Source: Nitrospinota bacterium
Lineage (GTDB): Bacteria > Nitrospinota_A > UBA7883 > JACRLM01
Length of the DNA stretch: 64,000 nt
Reading direction: 5' to 3'
NCBI GenBank assembly: GCA_016235255.1
Contig: JACRLM010000031.1
Coordinates: forward strand, 43,763-107,762
Shown here piece after piece: positions 4,090 through 63,962 of this stretch (position 1 is the stretch's first letter; each line of letters starts with the position of its first letter). The notes under the pieces are model-generated. The model was not told the origin of the DNA. It saw only the letters and a list, made by a program, of their open reading frames with translations, and did not search any database. Both the position numbers and the translations under genes were made by a program.

Positions 4090-5349
4090 ATGGACGGAAA
4101 AATCGCGGTCCCGGCTTACATGGCGGACTTTGCATGCCTTGGCGGCGAGTGCGACATGACATGCTGCCGTGTATGGGATGTCCCCTATGATGACGCGGCG
4201 TTTGACCGCTTGCAATCGGCCATGAGCCGGGATGAGTGGGCCGCAACCCTGAAAAATTTCCGCGCTCCCGATGTGGAGATAAAGGGGGCGAAGAGCATAG
4301 TAAAACTGCGGCCGGACGGTTATTGCGTATTTTTCGATGACAAAGGGCTCTGTTCCATACAGGGGAAGTACGGGGAGATGCGCCTTGGCGACGTTTGCGC
4401 CAAATACCCGCGCCAGTTCATCGGAATCGGGAACAGGATAGAGATGGTCGGCTGCCTTTCATGTCCGGAAGCTGTCCGGGGCCTTATCGCCAAGGGGGCG
4501 GCGCATGTGGCGGTAAAAGAGCCCTCATCGCTGCCACGGCCGGACTTGCTCACGCTCAAGCATTTTGTGGACACATCGTCCGCAAGTCTTTACCAAAGCG
4601 CATTTGACGATGTGCGGGGCGTTCTGCTTCAGCTATTGCAGGACGCTTCCCATCCGTTGGACACGCGACTTTTTCTGGCCAGCTATTTCGCCTCCCGCAC
4701 ATCCACTTTCTTCAGGAAAGGGGCCGGACGTGAGCATGCCGGGAAATTGGCCGTGGAGATAAAGAATATATTGTCGTCTGCGGCGCAGATGGAGCTTAAG
4801 GCCGGTTTTGACTCGATCAGTTTTTCCAGCAAGCTTGCCGTCTCCACCATCCGCGGCGTTCTGGAAGTCCGGGCCAAAACAAAAAGCGTCTTCCCGGAAT
4901 ATGTGGAGCTTATCGGGAAAATCGCGGACCATTACGCAGGCGAATCCTCGTCGGACGCTCTCTGGAAAGCGTATGAAGGGAGCAAATCCGCCGCGCCGCA
5001 ATCAGTGCGGGACTATTTTGACAGGCTGCTCGGCAATTACTGCGCGGAGCATTTGTTGTCCACCCCATATATAGTTGAAGAGGAGCTTCTTTCGTACATC
5101 GTGCTGCTCCTTTTGCGGGTGGCGGCGCTGCGTTTCATTTTCTACAGCCATCCGGACATTTATGAATTTCAGCATGAGGTGGACAAAATTCCGGAGGAAG
5201 ATTTTTATGGACGTCTGGCCGTGAAGACAGTGGTCTTTTTCACGAAAAACCTGGAGCACAACCTGGGTTACATGGAAGAGGTCAAAAAAGCGCTTGGGGG
5301 CGGCGGGATGTTCTCGCTGGCGCACGCGGCGGTCTTTATCAGGATGTGA
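4090..5349 (+). CDS. FliB-like flagellin lysine-N-methylase (YkgJ / CxxCxxCC-type Cys-rich family)
   Basis: The N-terminal FACLGGECDMTCCRVWDV (C-x4-C-x3-CC) matches my recollection of Salmonella FliB (FSCSGSACRDHCCKGWKI). The second cluster CVFFDDKGLCSIQGKYGEMRLGDVCAKYPR matches the FliB CPYLDEHRLC...C.SYPR block, and LSCPEAVRGLI matches LSCPEAARIIL. Confidence 0.55.
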   Translation: MDGKIAVPAYMADFACLGGECDMTCCRVWDVPYDDAAFDRLQSAMSRDEWAATLKNFRAPDVEIKGAKSIVKLRPDGYCVFFDDKGLCSIQGKYGEMRLGDVCAKYPRQFIGIGNRIEMVGCLSCPEAVRGLIAKGAAHVAVKEPSSLPRPDLLTLKHFVDTSSASLYQSAFDDVRGVLLQLLQDASHPLDTRLFLASYFASRTSTFFRKGAGREHAGKLAVEIKNILSSAAQMELKAGFDSISFSSKLAVSTIRGVLEVRAKTKSVFPEYVELIGKIADHYAGESSSDALWKAYEGSKSAAPQSVRDYFDRLLGNYCAEHLLSTPYIVEEELLSYIVLLLLRVAALRFIFYSHPDIYEFQHEVDKIPEEDFYGRLAVKTVVFFTKNLEHNLGYMEEVKKALGGGGMFSLAHAAVFIRM

Positions 5350-35840: not shown

Positions 35841-36195
35841 TGCTTCCCCGTAACCGTTTCTATTAACGCTTCCCCGTGGTCGCCTCTTAATGCTTCCCCG
35901 TGGTCGCCTCTTAATGCTTCCCCGTGGTCGCTGACCACGGATTCCTAAAGCGGGGAACCGGGGACTTCGTGGGAGCGCGGGCATCTTGCCCGCACTAATT
36001 AGACGGGGCCTAAACGGCTCCGTCTAATTACAGCAGCGCTTTTTGCAAGTCCAAGACGCCTTCGAGGCTCCTTGGACTTGTTGCGGGCAAGATGCCCGCG
36101 CTCCCAGGGGGGAACGAATCGCTGTCCGGGGTGTTCTTCACCCCGGACTCATCATGCCGCCGTATACGATGGCGGGGTGAAGAACATCCCGGCGA
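35841..36195. repeat. Composite palindromic intergenic repeat element, copy A (tandem 26-bp direct repeats plus nested hairpins enclosed by a 23-bp inverted repeat)
   Basis: Direct repeats CGCTTCCCCGTGGTCGCCTCTTAATG x2.5 (35867-35940). Hairpins GTGGTC-g-CTGACCAC, TAATTAGACGG..CCGTCTAATTA, CAAGTCCAAG..CTTGGACTTG, CGGGGTG..CACCCCG. Outer inverted repeat GGGAGCGCGGGCATCTTGCCCGC (35961-35983) / GCGGGCAAGATGCCCGCGCTCCC (36083-36105). A ~95-nt core is near-identical to 58690-58790. Confidence 0.55.
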
Positions 36196-58662: not shown

Positions 58663-58940
58663 ATAACGTTTCCCCGTGGCCGCCTCCATTAACGCTTCCC
58701 CGTGGTCGCTGACCACGGATTCCTAAAGCGAGGAACCGGGGACTTCGTGGAAGCGCGGGCATCTTGCCCGCACTAATTAGACGGAGCATCAAAGGCTCCA
58801 TAATGCTTCCCTGTGGTTACCTCTACTAACGCTTACCGCTGTCCGGGGTGTTGTAGCCCGCAAGGGCGGTCACCCCGGACTCTTTGTGCTCCGTTCAGGA
58901 AGGCGGGGTGACGCGCTTCGCGCTCAAACACCCCGCCGAG
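58663..58940. repeat. Composite palindromic intergenic repeat element, copy B (diverged)
   Basis: Shares the ~95-nt core ...TTAACGCTTCCCCGTGGTCGCTGACCACGGATTCCTAAAGCG(A)GGAACCGGGGACTTCGTGG(A)AGCGCGGGCATCTTGCCCGCACTAATTAGACGG... and the CGGGGTG..CACCCCG hairpin with copy A. It lacks the 3' partner of the long inverted repeat and has an 18-nt insertion in one hairpin loop. Confidence 0.55.
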
Positions 58941-58993
58941 CGGCAGAAGGCTGGCCGATGGCGATTAAAGGAGGGGATATAACTACTATGCGC

Positions 58994-60205
58994 TCACCAC
59001 CCGAATTCAAGCTTCGGGGCTCCGTATTTCACCATCGCCATGTAATATCTCTCGAACGCGTGTTTCATCCAGTGGTACACGCGCCCTCTGTCGTGGCGCA
59101 GCTTGTTGCGGGGCGGCAGAAGGGGCGAAGCGGAAATATAAAATGCTGTGTCCCCCGCGTCGGCTATGCAGATCACCGAAAAGTCCTTCCCCCGTTTTTT
59201 GGCCCCACCCCGGATGTCCGCCACGATGTTATGGGCGGCCGCTTCCGCCATGGCGCCGGTCATCTGCCCGGTCTTGGGAACGCCGACCGCCACTGGCGTC
59301 TCGGCTGGAGGCGGTATGGCAAGGGTCACCCCCACCGCATAAACGTTCTGGTATTTAGGGTTCGCAAGATAATCGTCACCAATTATGAATCCGCGCGGAT
59401 TTGAAAATCCTTCAATCCCCATATATGCATGGCTGCCGAAAAACGCGGGGACGATCAGAGAAAAATCGCTTTTCCATTTATCACCGTCGCCAAACTCCAC
59501 CCCGTCCGGCAACACTTGCGTCAACTTCGCGTTTGTTTTCCACGCGATCCCACGGTCGGCGAACTCGTCTTCCATCATCCGGCCCATGGCGCCAAAACCG
59601 CCAACGCCAAAATGACCGAGGAAAGGCTCGTTTGTGAAAAGTGATATCTTGAACTTGGGGCGGATTTTAAGGCCCCGCAACTTGGTGTCCATCATCATGG
59701 CCAGTTCGTACACCGGGCCAAGGCAGGAGGCCCCCGGCGCGTTGCCCAGCACTATATGGCCACTCCCCCGTTCGATCAGCGCGTCGAGCGCGCTTTTGGT
59801 CTGCATCGCCTGATGAACGTTGAAAATGGAATAACTGTTCCCCCCTTCCGGCCCCATTCCCGGTATGGCGGAAAAATCAAGCTCCGACCCTGTGGCGGCC
59901 ACAAGGTAGTCATAATCGTATTCGCCCGCGGAGCCCCGGACGCGGCATTTGTCCGGCTCGGCCTTCACTATAGTGTCATGGATGAATTTGATCCCAAGCT
60001 TTCCCAACCGCACGGCCACGTCCGCCTGTATGTCTTCCGGATTTTTCCATCCCATCGCCACCCATGGGAGCGACGGGACGAATGTGAACATTTTTTCGGA
60101 GGAGACCACCGTCACATCATCGGTGGGGCCAAGGGAATACCGCAGCGCAACCGCCGCGTTGAACCCGCCGAAAGACGAACCTGAAACGACGATCCTTTTG
60201 CCCAT
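58994..60205 (-). CDS. FAD-dependent pyridine nucleotide-disulfide oxidoreductase, sulfide:quinone oxidoreductase (SQR)-like
   Basis: RIVVSGSSFGGFNAA is the N-terminal FAD-binding motif. The 403-aa length and Cys positions (GASCLGPVYE ~160; VICIADAGD ~340) resemble SQR/flavocytochrome-c family proteins. Confidence 0.5.
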   Translation of the reverse strand: MGKRIVVSGSSFGGFNAAVALRYSLGPTDDVTVVSSEKMFTFVPSLPWVAMGWKNPEDIQADVAVRLGKLGIKFIHDTIVKAEPDKCRVRGSAGEYDYDYLVAATGSELDFSAIPGMGPEGGNSYSIFNVHQAMQTKSALDALIERGSGHIVLGNAPGASCLGPVYELAMMMDTKLRGLKIRPKFKISLFTNEPFLGHFGVGGFGAMGRMMEDEFADRGIAWKTNAKLTQVLPDGVEFGDGDKWKSDFSLIVPAFFGSHAYMGIEGFSNPRGFIIGDDYLANPKYQNVYAVGVTLAIPPPAETPVAVGVPKTGQMTGAMAEAAAHNIVADIRGGAKKRGKDFSVICIADAGDTAFYISASPLLPPRNKLRHDRGRVYHWMKHAFERYYMAMVKYGAPKLEFGW

Positions 60206-60233
60206 GCGCCGTCCCCTTTTTGAAAGGAAGATT

Positions 60234-60593
60234 TTAGAAAGTGACCACTTTATCCGAGCTCATAGTCCAGTCGTAAAGCAACTGCATGGATCCGGCGGCG
60301 ATTTCTCCGATCATGTCCCCCGTGCCAATCCCGCAACGGTCTATGCATGTCTTGCAGTATTTTACCTCCACTCCCTGCTCCGCTGTTTCTTTGAGCATAT
60401 CGGCCAGGTTGAAGTAATTTTCGGGGGGTTGCAGGCCGCTTCGCCCGGCGTCCACACCGTTGTTGATAAGGAAAATACGGGTCGCGGTCCCGTTTTTGAC
60501 CGATGTTTGCGCCAGCCGCATGGCGTTCCAAACGTTGTCAGTCCCATTATACGGAGCGGAACTTATGATGATAAGAAGTGACTTTCCAGCCAT
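60234..60593 (-). CDS. DsrE/DsrF/TusD-like sulfur-relay family protein
   Basis: ~119 aa; SLLIIISSAPYNGTDNVWNAMRLAQ... with a Cys cluster KYCKTCIDRCGIG. GGAGGAGG lies 9 nt upstream of the ATG at 60593. Confidence 0.5.
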   Translation of the reverse strand: MAGKSLLIIISSAPYNGTDNVWNAMRLAQTSVKNGTATRIFLINNGVDAGRSGLQPPENYFNLADMLKETAEQGVEVKYCKTCIDRCGIGTGDMIGEIAAGSMQLLYDWTMSSDKVVTF

Positions 60594-60672
60594 AATCGCC
60601 ATCCTCCTCCAGAGATAATGGCCGATTATCCAGCCTTAACAATAAAATGTCAAGACTGCTAACCGTTAGAGG

Positions 60673-61134
60673 TCAAGCTCCGGAGGATTGCACAAGACAC
60701 CGGGGGCCGATGTCCCGCCCCTGGTGTATCTTCATGTCTTTGTTCTTGTCGTACGTCAGGTAGATCGGGCATCCGTAACAGGTGCGCATGTCCGTCTGGC
60801 CCGATTCGGCTATGGCTTCCCAGCATTTTTTTGCCGTGGCGCCATACGCCGGGCAATCCCCCTGCCGTCCGCACTGTTTGATCTCCCAGCAGGGCGCCAT
60901 CATGTAAAGAAGTTTTAGCCCTGTAATAGTCATGCCGACTTTTTCCAGGTAGAAACGGATGTTCTTGATAAACTGGATATCGTTGTTCGAATACCGCCGC
61001 TGGCTGTTTATCCGGGCCGGTTTTATGAATCCCGCCTTCTCGTATTCGCGCAGCATCCTCGGAGTGGTACCGCACACTTCCGCCGCCACGTTGATCGGGT
61101 AAAGGGGCTTTGAGTCTTCAAATTCTGTTTCCAT
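60673..61134 (-). CDS. MerR-family transcriptional regulator with a Cys-rich C-terminal extension (6 Cys)
   Basis: YPINVAAEVCGTTPRMLREYEKAGFIKPARINSQRRYSNNDIQFIKNIRFY is the MerR HTH. The C-terminus is APCWEIKQCGRQGDCPAYGATAKKCWEAIAESGQTDMRTCYGCP. The listed 447-aa ORF is an artefactual upstream extension that overlaps the + strand M50 protease gene. Confidence 0.6.
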   Translation of the reverse strand: METEFEDSKPLYPINVAAEVCGTTPRMLREYEKAGFIKPARINSQRRYSNNDIQFIKNIRFYLEKVGMTITGLKLLYMMAPCWEIKQCGRQGDCPAYGATAKKCWEAIAESGQTDMRTCYGCPIYLTYDKNKDMKIHQGRDIGPRCLVQSSGA

Positions 61135-61215
61135 CCATCTGATAATACACCAAATGGAGGAATTTTTCCCATTTTGGCCTGTGGCGGGGCGCAAGTTGTA
61201 TGGTAAATTGTCCTG

Positions 61216-61920
61216 ATGGACACAGGAAATATCGGCCATCTTATCCAGACGATTTCGGTGATGGCCATCCCCGTTGTGCTTGCGGTGACTCTCCATGAGG
61301 TGGCACACGGATACATGGCCCACCTCAAAGGGGACGACACCGCCAAGATCATGGGAAGGCTCACACTCAATCCCTTGGCGCATGTGGACATCTTCGGCAC
61401 CGTGATCCTGCCCATCGTGTTCTACGCCACCACTGGGTTCCTTTTCGCCTACGCAAAGCCTGTGCCGGTGAACTTTTTCAACCTGCGCAGCCCGAAGCGG
61501 GACATGGTGTGGGTGTCGGCGGCGGGGCCTTTGACAAACGTAATCCTGGCGGTGATATCGGCTTTTGCGATAAAAGGGATCGGGTGGCTTTACCCTGAAT
61601 CCTTGCTGGAAGTGTACGCCAACATCCAGGGGGGTGGCGCCGGGGCCGGCAGCGTGGTGATCGTGCCGGTGATATACATGCTTTACTTCTCCGTGCTTCT
61701 CAACACCATCCTGGCGGTCATCAACCTTATCCCCATCCCACCCGCCGACGGGGGGAGGATCGTGGTCGGCCTTCTTCCGGAGCCGCATTCCTCTTCTTAC
61801 GCCCGGATAGAGCCTTTCGGCATGTTCCTTTTGATTTTCATCCTTTTCTTCAACCCGTTGCATATTATAGACGTCACGATCCACCCGCTGATACGGTGGG
61901 TGCTCGACCTTCTGTTGTGA
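61216..61920 (+). CDS. Site-2 protease family (peptidase M50) membrane metalloprotease
   Basis: HEVAHGY (HExxH) in a TM helix and NLIPIPPADGGR (the LDG motif). Confidence 0.7.
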   Translation: MDTGNIGHLIQTISVMAIPVVLAVTLHEVAHGYMAHLKGDDTAKIMGRLTLNPLAHVDIFGTVILPIVFYATTGFLFAYAKPVPVNFFNLRSPKRDMVWVSAAGPLTNVILAVISAFAIKGIGWLYPESLLEVYANIQGGGAGAGSVVIVPVIYMLYFSVLLNTILAVINLIPIPPADGGRIVVGLLPEPHSSSYARIEPFGMFLLIFILFFNPLHIIDVTIHPLIRWVLDLLL

Positions 61921-62990: not shown

Positions 62991-63308
62991 ATGATTACCG
63001 AAGACAAAATCATGGAAGCGGCCAGGCTCATCGGCGAGGCGGCCAAACCCGCCAAGGTGATCCTGTTCGGTTCCTACGCTCGCGGAGAGGCCACTGAGGA
63101 TTCCGACCTGGATTTCCTTGTCATAGAGCCCGCCGTGGATGACAAGGGACAAGAAATGGTGCGCCTTCACAAGGCGCTCCGCCCTCTCCGGATGACGGCG
63201 GACGTGCTGGTTTATTCCGAAGCCGAAGTGAAGGAGCGGCAAGATTGGTGTTCAACGCCCGTGTATTGGGCGTTGCGCGAAGGCAAGGTGGTTTACGAAA
63301 CAAGATGA
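62991..63308 (+). CDS. Nucleotidyltransferase (MNT) family antitoxin-like protein
   Basis: ILFGSYARGEATEDSDLDFLV is the GS..RG..x(n)..DxD pol-beta nucleotidyltransferase motif. Confidence 0.75.
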   Translation: MITEDKIMEAARLIGEAAKPAKVILFGSYARGEATEDSDLDFLVIEPAVDDKGQEMVRLHKALRPLRMTADVLVYSEAEVKERQDWCSTPVYWALREGKVVYETR

Positions 63309-63682
63309 AAAAGGAAGCCAAAATCCTTTTGCAGGTCGCGCAGAGAGATTACGTGGCTTTCGATATCCTCAGGAGAAATCCTGACGCCCATTTGAACAAT
63401 GTCCTTTTCAACGCACAGCAATGCGCCGAAAAACTGATTAAGGCCGCGCTGGCGTTCAATGAAGTTTATTACAAGAAAACACACAACCTCATTGAACTGT
63501 ATTATCAACTGGAAGAAAAAGATATCCCATTTCCGGCCAGCATGGACGACCTTGAGAAACTCAATCCGTACGCTGTCGGATTCAGGTATGAAAGCAGCGA
63601 GATCGGCCTGATGTCCCGGGAAGAAGCGGCGGAACTATTGAATATTTTGCGCGAGTGGGCGAAGCAAATCGTCGGCGAGTAG
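63305..63682 (+). CDS. HEPN-domain protein (toxin-like partner of MNT)
   Basis: ATGA overlap with the MNT gene. The fold is helical, and LIKAALAFNEVYYKKTHNLIELY is a HEPN-like R-x4-6-H region. Confidence 0.65.
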   Translation: MKKEAKILLQVAQRDYVAFDILRRNPDAHLNNVLFNAQQCAEKLIKAALAFNEVYYKKTHNLIELYYQLEEKDIPFPASMDDLEKLNPYAVGFRYESSEIGLMSREEAAELLNILREWAKQIVGE

Positions 63683-63701
63683 CCCATTCATGAGTTTTTC
63701 C

Positions 63702-63962
63702 TCAGACCAATCCCGTGAGCATGTGCGTCCCGTCGCAGAAAGGCGGCTTTGTCGTCTTCTTGCATCCGCATAGGGCGGCGTGCCTGTCCTTTTCGATTTC
63801 AAAAACCATCGGGACGTTTTTCATCCCTTCATACTCCGTCCCCTTGTGCGACCCGTCGCAGAAAGGCTGCTTTCTGGAAAGCCCGCACCCGCACCATGCG
63901 TAACTTCCAGCCTTAAGCTCCACGATGTAAGGAGCGTTCTTCGGCGATTTGGGATCAGGCAT
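63702..63962 (-). CDS. CDGSH-type iron-sulfur domain protein (mitoNEET-like), two CDGSH motifs
   Basis: CGCGLSRKQPFCDGSH and CGCKKTTKPPFCDGTH. Confidence 0.75.
   Translation of the reverse strand: MPDPKSPKNAPYIVELKAGSYAWCGCGLSRKQPFCDGSHKGTEYEGMKNVPMVFEIEKDRHAALCGCKKTTKPPFCDGTHMLTGLV

Follow-up and report, generated by a model that had tools for sequence, protein, structure and literature searches.

The 64,000-nt stretch of DNA analysed here as a whole (the window) comes from the Nitrospinota bacterium contig JACRLM010000031.1 (assembly GCA_016235255.1, positions 43,763 to 107,762). It contains a minus-strand locus of three co-directional genes encoding a MerR-superfamily regulator with a cysteine-rich extension, a DsrE/YchN-like protein and a flavoprotein related to sulfide:quinone oxidoreductase (SQR). 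Our analysis points to a one-component repressor of sulfide-oxidation genes, whose sensor domain, here called the CW module, may be new. The features of the locus are as follows.

58994-60205, minus strand: SQR-like flavoprotein, 403 aa (Pfam Pyr_redox_2, 2.8e-14)
60234-60593, minus strand: DsrE/YchN-like protein, 119 aa (PF02635, 9.9e-17); the longest open reading frame (ORF) extends to 60602 and gives 122 aa
60603-60610, minus strand: Shine-Dalgarno sequence GGAGGAGG of the DsrE-like gene, 9 nt before the ATG at 60593, from direct sequence reading
60625-60653, minus strand: predicted sigma-70-type promoter of dsrE-sqr, TTGACA-17-GATAAT, from a neutral promoter scan
60635-60654, palindromic: predicted operator CTTGACA-TTTTAT-TGTTAAG (minus-strand reading), whose left arm contains the -35 hexamer
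60673-61134, minus strand: regulator, 153 aa (MerR_1, 9.7e-11), starting at an internal ATG of a longer mechanical ORF
60904-61107, minus strand: winged helix-turn-helix (HTH) of the regulator, residues ~10-77 (PF13411)
60676-60903, minus strand: Cys-rich CW module of the regulator, residues 78-153, from an alignment of 24 homologues
61142-61147, minus strand: -10-like TATTAT, putative leaderless promoter of the regulator, 7 nt upstream of its ATG, with no Shine-Dalgarno sequence

All three ORFs were located in the ORF listing, and their coordinates and Pfam families agreed with an earlier annotation made from the nucleotide sequence alone (the sequence-only reading). The same genes were called on two independent assemblies (L001 and L002; locus and protein numbers with L and P are ours), and the protein accessions at the locus are MBI5814740.1, the 153-aa regulator, and MBI5814738.1. 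The intergenic gaps of 70 and 28 nt given in that reading are right for its ORF coordinates. The DsrE-like protein more likely starts at 60593 (119 aa, MAGKSLL...), because GGAGGAGG abuts the first ATG at 60602, gene callers chose the second start, and the orthologues begin with M-x-x-K-S-L-L; the gap between the regulator and dsrE would then be 79 nt.

The flavoprotein is, by sequence comparison, a type-I-like SQR homologue for which sulfide oxidation is predicted. Its best PDB sequence match was the Aquifex aeolicus SQR (3hyv, E = 7e-84, residues 1-395, full length, 40% identity), followed by the Acidithiobacillus ferrooxidans SQR (3sz0, 1e-73, full length). Matches to the Acidianus SQR (3h8l, 5e-22), the type II NADH dehydrogenase NDH-2 (4nwz, 1.6e-17), flavocytochrome c sulfide dehydrogenase (FCSD, 4.8e-8) and CoA-disulfide reductase (CoADR, 1.7e-7) were far weaker, a ranking that ruled out an NDH-2 or CoADR identity. 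The redox Cys pair is kept in the type I motifs GASCxGPxYE and ICIADxG: C161 (in GASCLGPVYE) and C346 (in VICIADAGD), the counterparts of Aquifex C156 and C347, were invariant in a 29-sequence alignment. The SQR-like identity proposed earlier was borne out, and the contrary outcome considered with it, a generic NDH-2 or CoADR devoid of sulfide-oxidation residues, did not occur.

Unlike type I SQRs, the window protein has Phe (F128) at the position of the third Cys (Aquifex C124, A. ferrooxidans C128), and Ser replaces the second Gly of GxGxxG in its N-terminal dinucleotide motif (G9-S-S-F-G-G14). Moreover, at the C-terminus, where type I SQRs have amphipathic helices for monotopic membrane binding, its alignment with the Aquifex SQR reaches residues ~396-404, and the chain ends about 26 residues earlier, in a conserved LPxLxFGW tail. 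The 29-sequence alignment showed these features to be family-wide traits rather than defects of the window copy, with the Phe nearly invariant in the subfamily and GSSFGG or GGSFGG found throughout. A large protein search returned 816 proteins at E <1e-30, in which the named members of a clade at 59-71% identity were nearly all from Nitrospinota, followed by a step down to ~50% (Acidobacteria and Deltaproteobacteria-type metagenome-assembled genomes, MAGs). A 2024 comparative study described Sqr genes in the non-nitrifying Nitrospinota classes and is silent on their regulation (PMC10839748).

The DsrE-like protein scored 61.6 bits against PF02635 (gathering score 22.7). Its closest solved relative was E. 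coli YchN (1jx7, 6e-19, full length), with TusD as a weak second match. C83 (122-aa numbering) aligns with the TusD Cys78 position (2d1p) and with the CKTC motif of YchN, and the motif YCKTCIDRCGIGTG, containing C83, C86 and C90, was identical in eight orthologues. The active-site Cys, the possible absence of which had been considered, is kept, in agreement with the assignment as DsrE-like; unlike YchN, the window protein has an extra Cys, C90 (CKTCIDRC). A DsrEFH/TusBCD complex was ruled out: the protein is the only DsrE-family member in the module, with no adjacent DsrF/DsrH (TusC/TusB) paralogues, and its TusD equivalog score was 28.7 against a cutoff of 89.

We know of no established function for YchN. 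A YchN-like gene adjoins an SQR gene of the window subfamily in all 11 loci examined, whatever the regulator; the pairing was seen in seven MerR-linked loci, in Acidobacteria (L071) and Deltaproteobacteria (L073) with the order sqr-dsrE, in marine Nitrospinota (L074-76) and in a Nitrospinae contig (L077). We infer that the two proteins form a functional couple, in which the YchN-like carrier would accept sulfane sulfur from the SQR cysteines, and this constant pairing gives YchN a concrete candidate role. In L071 and L073, the SQR carries GGSFGG, and its gene lies behind genes for an MMPL transporter, a TP_0789-like lipoprotein-sorting protein and a 421-422-aa protein without a solid family. 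An MMPL gene and a 279-aa gene, the latter taken for a lipoprotein-sorting protein without a domain search, also follow the regulator in L009.

The head of the regulator is modelled as an HspR/GlnR-like winged HTH of the MerR superfamily that lacks a long coiled coil. It scored above the Pfam cutoffs for PF13411 and PF00376 (42.1 and 33.8 bits), and its best NCBIfam model was HspR (NF047375 equivalog), followed by the fused HspR type and ZntR; close homologues also matched CarH and TnrA. At 48.3 bits against a cutoff of 105, HspR membership was ruled out. In the AlphaFold2 model, the HTH had a predicted local distance difference test score (pLDDT) >90, and only a 10-residue helix (residues 70-79) lay between the wing and the Cys module, with no counterpart of the long coiled coil of the canonical MerR activators (MerR, CueR, ZntR, SoxR and BmrR). 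A Foldseek search with the full model returned only MerR-type heads, the DNA complexes of GlnR and TnrA first; GlnR (4r4e and 7tea) superposed on the modelled HTH with a root-mean-square deviation of 1.2 A over 71-77 columns. The description as a MerR-family regulator was upheld at the level of the superfamily, whereas the canonical activator type was not.

Among these relatives, GlnR/TnrA and CarH share with the window regulator a short post-wing helix and a separate C-terminal sensory part, but their effector domains are different, and the half-sites described below are opposite in orientation to the TnrA box (TGTNA-N7-TNACA). Unlike in the case of HspR, no chaperone genes lie near the window regulator, and HspR itself has no six-Cys module.

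The operator was derived by aligning the DNA around regulator genes in loci from genomes and metagenomes, which revealed a conserved palindrome, cTTGACA-N6/7-TGT(C/T)A(A/G)G (also written cTTGACA-N6/7-TGTCAAG). It lies between the regulator stop codon and dsrE in every Nitrospinota-type locus, and other lineages have it in front of the regulator gene as well as in front of the gene that comes next. Across 33 non-redundant loci, the 11 kb flanking regulators contained 25 matches to the loose pattern and the other 217 kb contained two, a density about 250-fold higher near the regulators. The site at 60635-60654 is the only match to CTTGACAN6TGTCAAG with at most one mismatch in the 64-kb window, and a window-wide scan for further regulon members gave only this dsrE site, plus two 3-mismatch matches at chance level. 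It overlaps TTGACA-17-GATAAT, the best promoter-like site in 58700-61400 (11/12 consensus positions). The dyad covers the -35 box, and its centre lies ~6 bp upstream of the promoter centre. Reading the orthologous loci by eye, we found TTGACA followed 17-18 nt downstream by a TAnnnT-type hexamer.

The link between regulator and target genes assumed in the sequence-only reading is supported by this conserved operator in the dsrE promoter together with the conserved synteny. Adjacency by coincidence, with the regulator controlling something else and dsrE-sqr expressed constitutively, is highly improbable. Some family members do not lie beside sulfur genes, and numerous SQR-DsrE pairs from this subfamily occur away from any regulator of this kind, but the family-specific palindrome sits exactly on the dsrE promoter wherever the two are adjacent and is otherwise almost absent.

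A MerR-type promoter with a 19-20-bp spacer had been expected upstream of the regulator gene, in 61135-61215. That region contains neither TTGACA nor a dyad, only the -10-like TATTAT 7 nt before the ATG; the regulated promoter is located in the regulator-dsrE gap instead and has a 17-bp spacer. The regulator genes lack a Shine-Dalgarno sequence, and nearly all lineages have a -10-like hexamer that stops 7-8 nt short of the ATG; these features suggest that the regulator mRNA is leaderless and probably constitutive. The recurrence of this geometry across homologous loci supports the regulator start at 61134. Because the TATTAT region at 61142-61147 has no operator, the window regulator is probably not autoregulated. 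The single three-gene operon envisaged earlier gives way to what are probably two transcription units, since the regulator-dsrE gap holds its own near-consensus promoter. This gap contains no convincing terminator, only a chance-level hairpin overlapping the -10 hexamer, so that read-through from the regulator promoter may also co-transcribe all three genes. In the Syntrophobacterales-type group (L009, L034-L046), the autoregulatory promoter reads TTGACA-T-TGTCATGA, with half-sites 1 nt apart versus 6-7; N6 is retained there at the target site downstream (CTTGACA-N6-TGTATAAG).

HspR is a repressor, and its HAIR operator reads CTTGAGT-N7-ACTCAAG (PMC6102357). The palindrome found here resembles HAIR in its 7-bp arms (CTTGAnn), its 6-7-bp spacer and its overlap with the promoter, an arrangement compatible with repression, and differs from it at arm bases 6-7 (CA/TG instead of GT/AC). 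HspR-style steric repression is rather probable in our judgement, because a near-consensus promoter with an optimal spacer, a dyad that is off-centre and lies over the -35 box, and an HspR/GlnR-type head lacking a coiled coil all favour it over spacer remodelling. The MerR-type activation implied by the sequence-only reading, in which the protein would stay on the dyad and remodel the promoter upon the signal, is the alternative to repression and is quite unlikely. Membership of the MerR superfamily, the position of the dyad inside the promoter and several orthologous dsrE promoters for which, read by eye, 18 bp is a better spacer fit than 17 bp would suit such an activator. However, the spacers are 17-18 bp rather than 19-20 bp, the window promoter matches 11/12 positions at 17 bp and needs no remodelling, the dyad is displaced upstream and covers the -35 box fully, the model has no long coiled-coil helix, and the closest relatives (HspR, GlnR, TnrA and CarH) work without spacer distortion.

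The C-terminal module contains seven Cys residues, spaced C82-x5-C88-x5-C94-x9-C104-x14-C119-x2-C122-x23-C146. The Cys-rich extension noticed earlier is present, but the third of its proposed x5 spacings is x9, and six of the seven Cys are invariant. Specifically, C82, W83, C88, C94, C104, W105, C119, C122 and P123 were invariant in the 24 homologues (52-74% identity), and P95 and C146 were nearly so. The module follows the pattern C-W-x4-C-x4/5-C-P-x8-C-W-x13/14-C-x2-C-P in the regulators, and the six-Cys core over all formats is C-W-x4-C-x4-7-C-x9-C-W-x13-21-C-x2-C, spanning ~55 residues. A Pfam search of the regulator found no family covering it.

A phmmer search with the tail only against 1.8 billion representatives returned 28 proteins; some were further MerR fusions, others were stand-alone proteins of ~86-118 aa, and one was a histidine kinase (P0162, 495 aa) with two tandem copies N-terminal to its HisKA/HATPase core. 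A profile search added 124 small 'hypothetical proteins' without a Pfam domain, mainly from Desulfobulbaceae/Desulfocapsaceae-type MAGs. The module resembles the NCBIfam 'two-CW domain' (NF045718) in having two Cys-Trp dipeptides in a short Cys-rich stretch; membership was ruled out, as the match on residues 81-121 reached only 17.4 bits against a cutoff of 35, and the stand-alone homologues did not match NF045718 at all. Judged by its sequence distribution, the CW module behaves like a portable sensor domain described by no curated library. The genes for stand-alone proteins (P0180 and P0187) have a divergent LysR regulator and a DUF417-like membrane protein as neighbours, in one case also a molybdopterin oxidoreductase, with NrfAH-type cytochromes upstream; the contexts of the stand-alone proteins were otherwise uninformative and did not help toward the identity of the signal.

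SoxR likewise joins a MerR-superfamily head to a C-terminal Cys cluster that could hold a redox-active centre; it has four Cys in CX2CXCX5C, a [2Fe-2S] cluster and a long coiled coil and activates a promoter with a 19-bp spacer. Unlike SoxR, the window regulator has six or seven Cys in another pattern and is associated with 17-18-bp spacers, and its SoxR score was weak (13.9 bits).

The regulator-DsrE-SQR order of the window was also found in L004, L005, L006, L017, L026, L028, L031 and L015, and its recurrence in at least seven other non-redundant loci indicates that the arrangement is not due to chance. By our tally, ~22 of ~26 non-redundant family loci with readable neighbours carry genes for sulfur/selenium trafficking or thiol redox, encoding DsrE, SQR, rhodanese, cysteine desulfurase, CoADR-rhodanese, TauE or AhpC/TSA redoxin. 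The gene contents were as follows.

At least eight family loci: DsrE and SQR
L015: rhodanese, DsrE and SQR
Spirochaetia contig: regulator, then a membrane ferredoxin, DsrE, cysteine desulfurase and an SQR/FCSD-like gene
Further loci: cysteine desulfurase, ArsM/UbiE-type S-adenosylmethionine (SAM) methyltransferase and PNP/MTA-type phosphorylase, with CoADR-rhodanese upstream
Further loci: ferredoxin-like membrane protein, AhpC/TSA redoxin, YgaP-type transmembrane protein, MMPL transporter, Cys/Met pyridoxal-phosphate enzyme and cysteine desulfurase
L032, 5933-8382: regulator, then an AIRS/AIRS_C protein (taken as SelD-like), a TauE/SafE exporter and a DsrE-like gene, with the operator on the opposite strand

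The Nitrospinae contig L077 (1030-5212), from the same SRR121134xx run series as the window's own contigs, carries orthologous dsrE-sqr genes without an adjacent MerR-CW regulator. A divergent gene for an ArsR(HTH_5/HTH_20)-rhodanese fusion lies nearby, with FA_hydroxylase and VTT-rhodanese genes in between. This looks like a non-orthologous displacement by a regulator class already tied to persulfide sensing.

Two loci showed peculiarities of their own. In L017, a Nitrospinales MAG, the regulator match (4303-4545) covers only residues 1-61 and runs into the start of dsrE, whereas dsrE-sqr is intact; the Cys module and the operator region have apparently been deleted, or the contig is misassembled. 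In L009 (5145-5585), and likewise in the Syntrophobacterales-type loci L034, L041, L042 and L046, a gene downstream of the operator encodes an AhpC/TSA-type redoxin whose redox motif is interrupted by a conserved in-frame TGA (FWKSL-TGA-GRC), indicating a putative selenoprotein. With the selenocysteine (U) written as C, its 147-aa read-through product scored 60 bits against PF00578, versus 27 bits for the fragment after the TGA.

These neighbourhoods bear on what the CW module might sense. Sulfide-derived sulfane sulfur is the signal we favour, with slightly less than even confidence, because of the sulfur-gene neighbours and the ArsR-rhodanese displacement in L077; a wider sulfur/selenium or thiol-redox theme would suit the neighbours as well. 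A different possibility is that the Cys module holds an iron-sulfur (Fe-S) cluster and, by the logic of SoxR, NsrR or WhiB, reports O2, NO, reactive oxygen species (ROS) or general redox state, with the sulfur genes serving thiol/Fe-S homeostasis. This is unlikely, although the module itself has six invariant Cys, an invariant C122-P123 and a C94-P95 whose Pro is nearly invariant; Cys-Pro is typical of cluster ligands, and C-x5-C-x4/5-C recalls the cluster motif of the Rrf2 proteins IscR and NsrR. Ferredoxins, cysteine desulfurases and the AhpC/TSA redoxin among the neighbours, as well as the one member beside a cbb3 oxidase, would also suit a cluster. Yet the commonest partners, SQR and DsrE, are specific to sulfide and sulfane sulfur, the fusion that replaces the regulator in a related genome is of a type associated with persulfide sensing, and no Fe-S family model in Pfam or NCBIfam matched the module.

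The selenium- and arsenic-related neighbours would instead suit a sensor of a soft metal or a metalloid/chalcogen (Cu(I), Zn, As(III) or selenide) with a polynuclear thiolate site, heading a selenium/arsenic detoxification unit. Some members precede the ArsM/UbiE-type SAM methyltransferase, PNP/MTA-type phosphorylase and cysteine desulfurase genes, and others precede the SelD-like AIRS gene with TauE or the redoxin gene with its putative selenocysteine. In addition, the best NCBIfam matches of the SQR-like protein were SQR_III_seleno and the 'Nterm_to_SelD' family, and the DsrE-like protein matched YedF. All of these scores were weak and far below the cutoffs, however, the Nitrospinota loci hold only DsrE and SQR, and the window locus has no metal-efflux or ars genes beside it; such a sensor is distinctly improbable.

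For the repressor with a Cys module that controls dsrE-sqr and is released by sulfur chemistry, the model supposes the following course. The regulator gene (60673-61134) would be transcribed constitutively, probably as a leaderless mRNA, and its product, presumably a dimer, would bind the palindrome at 60635-60654 over the -35 box and spacer, repressing the dsrE(ychN)-sqr transcript from the TTGACA-17-GATAAT promoter. A chemical change of the Cys module would then make the repressor leave the DNA; the likeliest agents are sulfide-derived sulfane sulfur, forming persulfide or polysulfide bridges between thiols, or an attack on a metal or Fe-S centre held in the module. Oxidation of sulfide, with the quinone pool as acceptor, would then fall to the SQR homologue, and the YchN-like protein would take over, via its conserved Cys83, the sulfane sulfur formed on the SQR cysteines. 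Gene identities, conserved catalytic residues, conserved synteny, the conserved and position-specific operator and the promoter geometry are what the sequences show. Beyond them we infer that the regulator represses rather than activates, what it senses, that its Cys module may hold a cofactor, and that SQR passes sulfur on to YchN, and we give the model as a whole an even chance of being correct.

Several points weigh against it. The entire case rests on sequence comparison of uncultured genomes (MAG). The AlphaFold2 models of the Cys module were of low confidence, with pLDDT 58-80 in the whole-regulator model and a mean of 64 for the module alone (135-sequence alignment), and give it no structural support. 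Two family members lie in non-sulfur contexts, one in a chemotaxis cluster (L022) and the other with a cbb3 oxidase, MarR and cytochrome P460 (L023), while the selenocysteine-containing redoxin and the SelD-like AIRS protein point to selenium. Given the Ser in the FAD fingerprint and the missing third Cys, SQR activity and flavin binding of the window protein are assumed. Finally, the six invariant Cys and two Cys-Pro look more like metal or Fe-S ligands than a two-thiol persulfide switch, and therefore the primary signal could be O2, NO, ROS or a metal.

Bacterial sulfide and reactive-sulfur sensing is known from few folds, namely CsoR-like CstR, ArsR-type SqrR/BigR and the sigma-54 regulator FisR, and reactivity toward sulfane sulfur has also been reported for several general redox regulators. 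Like CstR, SqrR/BigR and FisR in the cst, sqr-blh and pdo-sqr units, the window regulator is a one-component regulator adjoining sqr and sulfur-transfer genes. Unlike them, it matches only MerR-type models in Pfam and NCBIfam, is unrelated in fold and sensor module, and has six invariant Cys as opposed to their two-Cys switch. Its difference from the known sulfide-sensor folds, as put forward in the sequence-only reading, is confirmed by the lack of any Pfam or NCBIfam match to those families. In the searchable literature, which does not cover all journals, we found no MerR-family sensor of sulfide or sulfane sulfur, no description of the Cys module, and no relevant precedent for the two-CW domain, YchN plus SQR, or HspR plus cysteine-rich.

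If the model is correct, a MerR-superfamily repressor with a six-Cys module would extend the known sensors by a new chemistry and by a portable domain. A bolder version is doubtful: that the CW module is a dedicated, so far unrecognised cytoplasmic sensor domain for sulfane sulfur (or for chalcogenide/thiol stress) in three formats, and that the MerR-CW proteins form a new structural class of sulfide-responsive repressors controlling the GxSFGG subfamily of SQR, with the YchN-like protein as obligate acceptor. The operator cTTGACA-N6/7-TGTCAAG makes the hypothesis directly testable and could yield a compact sulfide/redox biosensor. The uncharacterised SQR subfamily occurs widely across Nitrospinota, Acidobacteria and Deltaproteobacteria-type MAGs, and for the ecology of Nitrospinota the locus suggests inducible detoxification or use of sulfide in low-oxygen waters and sediments.

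The module is flanked by housekeeping genes and is therefore an insert among unrelated genes. One side holds a divergent M50 peptidase gene, TrpS, a nucleotidyltransferase (NTase)/HEPN pair and a CDGSH protein gene, and the opposite flank holds a small-domain methyltransferase, MiaA and an SLT transglycosylase. The overlapping NTP_transf_2/HEPN pair (62991-63308 and 63245-63682) and the zf-CDGSH protein (63702-63962, minus strand) lie beyond TrpS, in 62991-63962, and are unrelated to the module. Scans of 56-64 kb gave no Rfam or tRNA match. An interspersed repeat of ~100 nt, itself without an Rfam match in 56-64 kb, occurs in two intergenic places (58664-58816 and 35864-36000) and reads ...aattagtgcgggcaagatgcccgcgct.ccacgaagtccccggttcc.cgctttaggaatccgtggtcagcgaCCACGGGGAAGCRTTA... 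on the minus strand. Its 3' unit, CCACRGGGAARCRTTA, had 6 matches versus 0 expected and is iterated, with three copies at a 24-nt period in 35864-35927 and others at 58664, 58690 and 58801. Much of the 535-nt gap that follows the SQR gene is taken up by one copy of the ~100-nt repeat.

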